DNA of 64,000 bases, taken from the NCBI RefSeq assembly GCF_056712565.1, contig NZ_CM160072.1, one strand, 5' to 3'. Positions 5,879 through 7,660 of the stretch are shown piece by piece (within the stretch, counting starts at the first letter, position 1; every line of letters begins with the position of its first letter). Both the position numbers and the translations under genes were made by a program. The notes under the pieces were generated by a model. It had not been told where the DNA came from. It was given only the letters and a program-made list of their open reading frames with translations, and did not search any database.

Positions 5879-7660
5879 GTGGGCGATATTGTTTACCTGA
5901 GAATAATCGGTGAGAAGCAGGGCGATATTTCTTCAGGCTGTGGGACGTATGCGTCGGTTGGTAATCGCTGGCAGGTTGGCCATGAAGATGAAATTTTTGC
6001 CTTTGCACTCACCAACGCCATTACCAGTACTGGTAAAGGCGTTAATCTACAGGGGCTACAATTTTGCAAACTCATTGATAAAAGCTCACCGCTACTGTCT
6101 AATGCCATCAATCAGAATGAGCGGTTATTTATTGAAATCGATTTGTATCGTATAAATAAAAGCGGGCGCTGGGAACGGTATTATTATATTCAGCTAAGAA
6201 ATGCTTCATTAACTGCTATTCATGTAAACATTTCTGACAATAATCTTCCTACCGAATGTGTAAATGTTAATTATGACTACATATTATGCAAACATCTAAT
6301 AGCCAATACGGAATTTGACTGGTTGGCCTTTCCTGCTGGCTATAATAGCTTATTTATTCCACCTAAAAACCCACCTGCCAGTAATCTTAACCCTGAGCCA
6401 CTACCAGTTGTTAACCTTCCACTCTCTCCACCAGCGGTTAAACCGGTCTATGCCAAATCCTGTCTGAAGGAGAAGGGATGTACAGATGCCGGAACGGCAG
6501 AAGAACCCGCTGAAAACTTCGGGCAAGTAGCGATTTTTGCTCTGCCAGTGGTTGATGACTGCTGTGGATACCACCATCCGGAGGCTAACGATGTTGGGCA
6601 ACCCGCAGAAGCTCAAACCATGCTACTGTTTCCGGGTAGTGTGTTGGCGGCTCAAATATGGGGAAAATGGTCGCTCAGTGGCATACTCAGTGCAACCTGC
6701 GGCTCTTACATCGGTGCGTTGGCATCTGCTTTGTATATTCCCTCTGCGGGCGAGGGCAGTGCTCGCGTGCCCGGACGTGATGAGTTCTGGTATGAGGAAG
6801 AACTGCGGCAGAAAGCACTAGCAGGCAGTACCGCCACCACCCGGGTACGTTTTTTCTGGGGAACTGACATTCACGGCAAGCCTCAGGTGTATGGTGTTCA
6901 TACGGGTGAAGGTACGCCGTATGAAAACGTCCGCGTGGCGAACATGCAGTGGAACGAGCAGACGCAGCGTTATGAATTTACCCCCGCTCACGATGTCGAT
7001 GGCCCCCTGATTACCTGGACGCCGGAAAATCCGGAACATGGGTATGTTCCGGGCCATACCGGTAACGACAGGCCGCCGCTGGAGCAGCCCACCATTCTGG
7101 TGACGCCGATTCCGGACGGCACCGATACCTATACCACGCCGCCATTCCCGGTTCCTGATCCGAAAGAATTCAACGATTATATTCTGGTTTTTCCGGCGGG
7201 ATCCGGTATTAAGCCCATCTATGTTTACCTGAAGGAGGATCCGCGAAAGCTGCCTGGTGTTGTAACAGGGCGCGGCGTCCCGCTTTCACCAGGAACTCGC
7301 TGGCTGGATATGTCGGTATCCAATAACGGCAACGGCGCACCAATCCCGGCGCATATTGCTGATAAATTGCGCGGACGGGAGTTTAAAACCTTTGATGAGT
7401 TTCGCGAGGCGCTGTGGCTGGAGGTGAGTCAGGATCCGGAGTTGATAGCGCAGTTTTCAAGTGGTAACCAAACACGTATAAAACAAGGATTAACCGCAAA
7501 AGCACCTATTGACGGTTGGTATTATGGCCCTAAAGAAATAGTTAAAAAATTCCAGATACATCATCGTGTTGCAGTTGAATATGGCGGCAGCGTATACGAT
7601 ATTGATAATTTACGAATTGTTACCCCCAGACTACACGATGAGATTCACTACAGGAGATAA
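5879..7660 (+). CDS. Hcp-fused T6SS effector: N-terminal Hcp tube-protein domain, central pyocin-S/colicin-like region, C-terminal colicin E9-type HNH DNase
   Basis: The N-terminal ~160 aa carry an Hcp signature (..KLIDKSSPLLSNAINQNERLFIEIDLYRINKSGRWERYYYIQLRNASLTAI..). The C-terminal ~130 aa align closely to the colicin E9 DNase (GAPIPAHIADKLRGREFKTFDEFREALWLEVSQDPEL ... FQIHHRVAVEYGGSVYDIDNLRIVTPRLHDEIHYRR, with the HH..N..H motif). The track start is GTG; the exact start is uncertain. Confidence 0.8.
   Translation: MGDIVYLRIIGEKQGDISSGCGTYASVGNRWQVGHEDEIFAFALTNAITSTGKGVNLQGLQFCKLIDKSSPLLSNAINQNERLFIEIDLYRINKSGRWERYYYIQLRNASLTAIHVNISDNNLPTECVNVNYDYILCKHLIANTEFDWLAFPAGYNSLFIPPKNPPASNLNPEPLPVVNLPLSPPAVKPVYAKSCLKEKGCTDAGTAEEPAENFGQVAIFALPVVDDCCGYHHPEANDVGQPAEAQTMLLFPGSVLAAQIWGKWSLSGILSATCGSYIGALASALYIPSAGEGSARVPGRDEFWYEEELRQKALAGSTATTRVRFFWGTDIHGKPQVYGVHTGEGTPYENVRVANMQWNEQTQRYEFTPAHDVDGPLITWTPENPEHGYVPGHTGNDRPPLEQPTILVTPIPDGTDTYTTPPFPVPDPKEFNDYILVFPAGSGIKPIYVYLKEDPRKLPGVVTGRGVPLSPGTRWLDMSVSNNGNGAPIPAHIADKLRGREFKTFDEFREALWLEVSQDPELIAQFSSGNQTRIKQGLTAKAPIDGWYYGPKEIVKKFQIHHRVAVEYGGSVYDIDNLRIVTPRLHDEIHYRR

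Follow-up and report, generated by a model that had tools for sequence, protein, structure and literature searches.

The 64,000-nucleotide stretch of DNA analysed here (the window; contig NZ_CM160072.1 of assembly GCF_056712565.1) is a segment of the Escherichia coli chromosome, and the 593-amino acid (aa) open reading frame (ORF) on its plus strand at 5879-7660 is usp, the gene of the uropathogenic-specific protein, accompanied by three immunity genes. A preliminary description of this ORF, made from the nucleotide sequence, had presented it as an orphan toxin in which an Hcp tube domain is joined to a colicin E9-type HNH DNase and which would depend on a type VI secretion system (T6SS) encoded elsewhere in the genome. 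That description is right and the feature was already known; the gene had not been recognised as usp, a standard virulence marker of extraintestinal pathogenic E. coli (ExPEC). Known since 2000 and used routinely in ExPEC typing, usp has already been analysed as a DNase, as a genotoxin, as an evolved Hcp and as a T6SS effector with an inner-membrane translocation (IMT) domain, and is no discovery in itself.

Usp of the window is identical over 593 of 593 aa to Usp of strain UTI89 (UTI89_C0121; UTI89_RS00600; WP_000502504.1; ABE05631), a protein that appears as usp in PMC3203889 and as Hcp-ET3-4 in PMC6730261, and that is the Usp reference in the work of Rihtar et al. (PMC7142922). The lambda-Red primers published for the F11 delta-usp mutant (PMC5820936) have exact matches in the window, one at 5879 and one at 7621-7660, and the label that the Prokaryotic Genome Annotation Pipeline (PGAP) gives to the same coding sequence is tssD. 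Among 5,426 complete E. coli genomes, 1,058 carry the gene, and every one of the 3,061 matches lies on the chromosome, none on a plasmid.

Domain architecture of Usp

As first described, usp is a single ORF, which includes the peptides quoted at that time, and its domains follow one another in this order:

5879-7660, plus strand: usp (uropathogenic-specific protein, also Hcp-ET3-4), 593 aa, GTG start
5879-6316, plus strand: Hcp/TssD tube domain, aa 1-146 (TIGR03344, Pfam T6SS_HCP, PDB Hcp 6a2v)
6317-6802, plus strand: linker, aa 147-308, proline-rich at aa 151-205 and then rich in Gly, Ala and Ser
6803-7228, plus strand: Pyocin_S/IMT domain, aa 309-450 (Pfam PF06958, E-value 2.2e-39)
7256-7651, plus strand: colicin E9/E7-type HNH DNase, aa 460-591 (Pfam PF21431, Col-Pyo_DNase, 2.8e-41)

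The resemblance of the N-terminus to Hcp, proposed from inspection of the letters, proves to be a significant profile match. TIGR03344 (TssD, NCBIfam) reaches 123.5 bits, where the curated cutoff is 58.9, Pfam T6SS_HCP (PF05638) covers aa 28-139 (9.5e-13), and a sequence search of PDB pairs Usp residues 3-145 with Hcp 6a2v (2.7e-15). Because aa 1-146 correspond to positions 1-160 of the 167 in TIGR03344, the Hcp domain is essentially complete. A single-sequence AlphaFold model of aa 1-165 was unusable (predicted local distance difference test 32, predicted template modelling score 0.28), and the domain call is therefore one made from sequence profiles.

At the opposite end of the protein, PF21431 matches over its full length (positions 1-124 of 124), and a PDB search with the C-terminus finds klebicin G (4e-39), the DNases of colicins E9, E2 and E7 (1e-30 to 1e-26) and pyocins AP41, S2 and S8. 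The match to the colicin E9 (ColE9) DNase (E-value about 1e-30) joins Usp aa 453-591 to residues 2-132 of 134, and all five catalytic residues are kept, with H561, H562, N577, H586 and H590 of Usp standing for H102, H103, N118, H127 and H131 of ColE9. The homology and the catalytic residues claimed in the preliminary description therefore stand, whereas its wording of an 'almost residue for residue' alignment does not, as the two sequences are separated by small indels and many substitutions. The middle region, which had been likened to the pre-nuclease part of pyocins and colicins, is a Pyocin_S domain over aa 309-450, and aa 307-452 also match ECA1669 (PDB 3MFB, 1.5e-17). The extension beyond the Hcp domain thus measures 447 aa and carries both the IMT and the HNH DNase domains. 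The length criterion for a specialised Hcp is a C-terminal extension of more than 60 aa (PMC8262886), and in Usp such an extension is found together with the toxin domain and the adjacent immunity gene that characterise the Hcp-ET proteins.

Pfam detects no domain in the linker, aa 147-308. Just before the IMT domain lies a Gly/Ala/Ser-rich segment (aa ~264-292, 6668-6754) that is only weakly hydrophobic (Kyte-Doolittle maximum 1.48); it is conserved with the Vibrio protein VPA1263 and has a weak similarity to residues 440-474 of klebicin G. Next to the 5' end of the gene we also observed a mini-ORF of two codons (ATG AAA TAA, 5869-5877), preceded by a well-spaced AAGGA Shine-Dalgarno sequence at 5855-5859. 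Its stop lies 1 nucleotide (nt) before the GTG of usp, which has no good Shine-Dalgarno sequence of its own, and the mini-ORF could serve translational coupling or be a start-stop element.

An array of three immunity cassettes

Downstream of usp, the plus strand carries three immunity genes, two of them preceded by a decayed piece of DNase gene:

7412-9490, plus strand: three tandem cassettes (DNase 3' end, immunity gene and spacer), delimited by blastn self-matches
7663-7947, plus strand: imu1 (orfU1), cognate colicin/pyocin-type immunity protein, 94 aa (PF01320, 8.1e-30)
8115-8354, plus strand: orphan DNase 3' fragment, decayed, with homology to Usp aa 515-593
8355-8645, plus strand: imu2 (orfU2), immunity protein, 96 aa (PF01320, alignment)
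8812-9000, plus strand: second orphan DNase 3' fragment, decayed
9048-9344, plus strand: imu3 (orfU3), immunity protein (PF01320; the PGAP start is equivalent to 9054)

The immunity gene that had been expected downstream of the toxin is imu1, a PF01320 gene whose start is 3 nt past the usp stop codon. What had gone unmentioned is that the locus is a three-cassette array, which we conclude because decayed DNase 3' fragments precede both imu2 and imu3. Each cassette opens with the common sequence TGGCTGGAGGTGAGTCAG, at 7412, 8103 and 8800, and spans about 690-700 bp; they share 79-80% mutual identity and each consist of the last ~80 DNase codons followed by an immunity gene. From what is known of ColE9, we take this end of the DNase to hold the immunity-binding region and the HNH motif. 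In the fragment at 8115-8354 the first His of the HH pair has become Tyr, and a frameshift after DNLR leaves the remainder (HLHDEIYYRR and a stop) in another frame. The fragment at 8812-9000 has the same His to Tyr change and an in-frame stop after DIDN, beyond which the same frame continues as RIVTPRLHDEIHYRR up to its own stop. The immunity proteins are most uniform at their ends: the last 23 residues are identical in Imu1, Imu2 and Imu3, but for a K to E change in Imu3 at the very last position.

Strain SCU-101 carries these modules in a rotated order. A different DNase end is fused to its usp and followed directly by an immunity gene that is the nearest relative of imu3; the second place is taken there by cassette 1 of the window, whose HNH reading frame is intact in that strain, and the third by cassette 2. 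This rotation fits the orphan-module logic of polymorphic toxin loci and the published subtypes of the locus, with its uspI and uspII types and four PAIusp subtypes (summarised in PMC3685522), and it suggests that cassettes can be switched by recombination. Matches of the locus in two pieces were also considered as cassette rearrangements, which was rejected for strain UPEC129: the arrangement there is that of UTI89, and the two pieces are an artefact of joining the match of an orphan fragment.

The region 5879-9490 is a mosaic in base composition, with a G+C content of 40% in the Hcp part, 52-56% in the linker, the IMT domain and the 5' part of the DNase, and 36-41% in the DNase 3' end and the immunity cassettes. 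The fall from about 56% to 36-41% occurs exactly at the start of the first cassette, 7412. Since this last switch coincides with a cassette boundary, assembly from parts of different origin is suggested.

The islet between aroP and pdhR and its insertion sequence

The window has nadC, ampD, ampE and aroP on the left of the locus and pdhR, aceE and aceF on its right. Between the end of aroP at 4151 (minus strand) and the start of pdhR at about 9800, it contains about 5.3 kb of DNA in excess of K-12, roughly at 4335-9640, and alignment with the K-12 spacer is confined to its margins, before about 4335 and after about 9640; the gene does lie, as had been proposed, in an insertion inside a housekeeping intergenic region. 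Because the figure of 5.3 kb includes a copy of the insertion sequence (IS) ISKpn26, of 1,196 bp, PAIusp proper measures about 4.1 kb. PAIusp (usp plus imu1-3), reported to be integrated always between aroP and pdhR (PMC7142922), is a small genomic islet of phylogroup B2/F-type E. coli. Most of the insert has a G+C content of 35-40%, against about 53% in the flanks.

Positions 1200-62378 of the window run collinear with UTI89 apart from one insertion, with 99.96-99.98% identity across the 59.7 kb compared. The islet matches those of uropathogenic and avian pathogenic reference genomes such as UTI89, APEC O1, IHE3034 and NU14 at 99.9-100%, and differs from the whole islet of UTI89 at three nucleotides (5654, 5656 and 9383), of which the first two lie at the junction between the IS and its target-site duplication and probably reflect the alignment there. 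Among the flanking genes, aceF has internal direct repeats of ~79% identity at 13418-14283, which correspond to the three lipoyl domains of its product, the E2 subunit, and are quite ordinary.

The only item of the locus not previously described, also absent from the preliminary description, is a strain-specific insertion of ISKpn26 between usp and its promoter:

4267-4297, plus strand: divergent promoter P3 of aroP (-35 AGTACT at 4267-4272, -10 TGGTAT at 4292-4297), located from the hexamers in PMC7142922
4463-5658, plus strand: ISKpn26 (IS5 family), 1,196 bp; transposase gene 4531-5511 (NCBIfam IS5 transposase, 5.8e-110)

P3, in a stretch of the spacer common to K-12, is the sole promoter mapped for usp; its activator is TyrR and its repressor H-NS, which is also reported to bind the usp leader (Rihtar et al., PMC7142922). 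ISKpn26 sits within this 5' leader, with the P3 start about 160 nt upstream of it and the usp start codon 220 nt downstream; it has terminal inverted repeats of 16-19 bp and a 4-bp target duplication (TTAG at 4459-4462 and 5659-5662). Copies with 100% identity to it occur on large conjugative plasmids, among them pAPEC-O1-R. UTI89 has no ISKpn26 here and its sequence is continuous across the site, and the junction of the window was found in none of the 5,426 complete E. coli genomes. In strain SCU-172 (NZ_CP054353.1, 2290-4774), usp has lost its Hcp-coding 5' end to an ISKpn26 inserted at a different site of the same locus and is annotated as a pseudogene; imu1-3 are intact there, and this locus is in a state that may be called 'disarmed but immune'. 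A consensus scan of the islet for promoters and terminators gave no more hits than shuffled sequence and is uninformative.

Usp as an Hcp effector and its relatives

The biochemistry and regulation of Usp are known from the literature. A plasmid with usp as its only gene of the locus cannot be kept in BL21(DE3), and the orfU genes rescue it (Zaw et al., PMC3685522). According to the same study, Usp and OrfU1 form a tight complex, UspI is bound and its toxicity blocked by OrfU1, Usp in its free form cuts DNA non-specifically in vitro, and substitution to Ala at H314, H315, N330 and H339 abolishes DNase activity and toxicity. In the 593-aa numbering these residues are H561, H562, N577 and H586, with an offset of 247 from the 346-aa numbering used there. 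The toxicity and rescue tests, the DNase assay and the HNH mutants, that is, most of the experiments suggested in the preliminary description, had thus already been published (PMC3685522). The Hcp-like N-terminus was noted by 2014-2015 (PMC3917654, PMC4436062), and Usp was then classed as an evolved Hcp (PMC4436062). As relayed in reviews, Ma et al. (2017) named the protein Hcp-ET3-4 and found it to be antibacterial and neutralised by all three immunity copies (PMC6730261). The function of the IMT domain has been shown in pyocin G, where it is FtsH- and TonB1-dependent, and the same authors name Usp as an example of a T6SS nuclease effector with an IMT domain (Atanaskovic et al., PMC9040868). 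The reading of the ORF as an Hcp-based T6SS effector is also that of the literature, which treats this exact protein as an evolved or specialised Hcp (PMC6730261, PMC4436062, PMC9040868).

Our analysis leads to the same view: Usp is very probably a specialised ('evolved') Hcp effector, made of a tube domain, an IMT domain and a DNase, with an antibacterial role and with Imu as the protection of the producer. The Hcp domain would place the protein in the tube of a T6SS encoded elsewhere on the chromosome, probably as one extended subunit among regular Hcp subunits; according to a recent structural paper, only one extended Hcp fits per ring. The T6SS would then fire Usp into a neighbouring Gram-negative cell, where the Pyocin_S/IMT domain would carry the toxin across the inner membrane, perhaps by an FtsH-type import like that of pyocin G, and the C-terminal E9-type HNH DNase would degrade the chromosome of the target non-specifically. 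In the producer, Imu1 binds the DNase and protects the cell. The cassettes with imu2 and imu3 would be displaced modules, which could provide immunity to other Usp variants and serve as substrates for cassette exchange.

The genomic context is compatible with such a mode of delivery. No T6SS structural genes occur in the window, as judged from the UTI89 annotation of the collinear stretch 1200-62378, and usp is in this sense the orphan that it had been said to be. UTI89 has a complete T6SS cluster by aspV, at 243.4-269.3 kb (tssA-M, tagH, vasI, two hcp genes, vgrG, a DUF2169 gene and a PAAR-like gene), a distance of about 117 kb from usp, or about 61 kb past the end of the window. Since this full cluster lies beyond the window, an orphan effector served by a distant T6SS is plausible. 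The Hcp domain of Usp is 40% identical to the hcp product at the end of the cluster and 26% identical to the other one. According to Ma et al. (2017), as relayed in reviews (PMC6730261), the Hcp-ET family shows T6SS-dependent export and contact-dependent killing, and by analogy Usp itself may be delivered in the same way.

Several points weigh against this interpretation. A T6SS is presumed for the source strain from its near identity to UTI89; reviews state T6SS dependence explicitly for Hcp-ET1 and Hcp-ET2 only (PMC6730261), and a review of 2015 described evidence for secretion of Usp as lacking (PMC4436062). One group found the strongest protection with Imu3, and its ligand to be DNA and not Usp (PMC3917654), which fits poorly in a simple picture of one toxin and one immunity protein. 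Deletion of usp had no gut-colonisation phenotype in mice (PMC5820936). Finally, the ISKpn26 copy in the leader may have changed or abolished the expression of usp in this particular strain.

The biology of Usp could also be read in other ways. It could act mainly as a genotoxin against mammalian host cells, a virulence factor of urinary tract infection and bacteraemia in which the bacteriocin-like and Hcp features would be leftovers. Usp has been described as a bacteriocin-like genotoxin that causes DNA breaks and caspase 3/7 activation in mammalian cells (PMC7142922, PMC3917654, PMC4436062), urea and a temperature of 37 °C induce its expression (PMC7142922), and in the literature the gene is associated with isolates from pyelonephritis, prostatitis and bacteraemia. 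However, its architecture is that of an interbacterial weapon, with a T6SS tube domain and an IMT domain specific to Gram-negative targets, its three colicin-type immunity genes and the turnover of its cassettes are typical of bacterial arms races, and it has no known route into the nuclei of host cells. We therefore regard a mainly host-directed role as rather unlikely, and the two activities, against host cells and against bacteria, may coexist. Far less probable is that Usp is a diffusible bacteriocin of the colicin or S-pyocin kind, released by lysis, imported through a receptor and independent of the T6SS, as Parret and De Mot originally proposed (cited in PMC3685522). The combination of IMT domain, DNase and immunity protein is indeed that of colicins E2, E7 and E9, pyocins S2 and AP41 and klebicin G. 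Nevertheless, the N-terminus is an Hcp domain, no receptor-binding or Tol/Ton-box region was detected, and a receptor-recognition domain is absent according to Zaw et al. (PMC3685522). Moreover, there is no lysis gene among the ORFs of the window, our search found no site resembling a LexA box near or upstream of usp, and the gene is always chromosomal. This last alternative we consider very improbable.

Whatever the function of Usp, ISKpn26 raises the question of its expression in this strain. The toxin gene could be transcriptionally crippled here, and the locus mainly an immunity array or in decay, as the element separates usp from its only mapped promoter and, in SCU-172, has already removed the 5' end of the gene. 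Yet the ORF of the window is intact and identical to that of UTI89. Furthermore, read-through into usp is possible because the transposase gene points toward usp and has no convincing intrinsic terminator after it on that strand. IS5-family insertions can also activate neighbours silenced by H-NS. We find it unlikely that the toxin has been crippled in this way. A tentative and also doubtful idea is that ISKpn26, which splits the AT-rich, H-NS-bound tract between P3 and usp, rewires the regulation of the toxin. If so, usp would be uncoupled from control by aromatic amino acids, by temperature and by urea, with H-NS silencing relieved or read-through supplied, although the opposite outcome, a disarmed strain that keeps its three immunity genes, could also result. 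The insertion is a strain-level curiosity that could offer a natural test of the dependence of usp on P3 of aroP.

With Usp taken as a specialised Hcp effector, its locus can be set against known systems. PAIusp of UTI89, and likewise of Z42 and other ExPEC, has the same Usp, aroP-pdhR site, imu1-3 and orphan fragments as the window, and the only difference from the UTI89 islet is the 1,196-bp ISKpn26 in the usp leader of the window. The orphan toxin/immunity arrays of contact-dependent inhibition (CDI), Rhs and other polymorphic toxin systems resemble the Usp locus in having tandem, displaced toxin 3' ends that are each paired with a separate immunity gene, conserved sequence around a variable core, and a cassette order that varies between strains. 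Unlike them, the Usp locus has very short units (about 695 bp) and both of its orphan toxin ends are inactivated here, one by a frameshift and one by a stop codon.

At the level of the protein, colicins E9, E7 and E2, pyocins S2, AP41 and S8 and klebicin G share with Usp the IMT domain, the HNH DNase with identical catalytic residues and the PF01320 immunity protein. In contrast to these bacteriocins, Usp lacks a receptor-binding or disordered translocation region at its N-terminus, where a T6SS tube domain stands instead, and its chromosomal gene is accompanied by neither a lysis gene nor an SOS box. Hcp-ET1 (STEC004 / O104:H4), an antibacterial T6SS effector (PMC6730261), likewise joins an N-terminal Hcp to a His-Me finger DNase and has an immunity gene downstream. 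It carries a generic HNH (PF01844) without Pyocin_S/IMT and is linked to T6SS2, whereas Usp has an IMT domain, a colicin-type DNase and three immunity cassettes. Also related in the toxin part is VPA1263, a MIX T6SS DNase effector of Vibrio parahaemolyticus (NF047924), in which positions 373-711 align with Usp aa 206-590 (1.2e-62). Usp is not a member of the NF047924 family, because its score of 212 bits falls far below the curated cutoff of 900 bits. Nonetheless, the two effectors share the segment before the IMT domain, the IMT domain itself and the colicin DNase module, and differ in the domain used for delivery, which is MIX in VPA1263 and Hcp in Usp.

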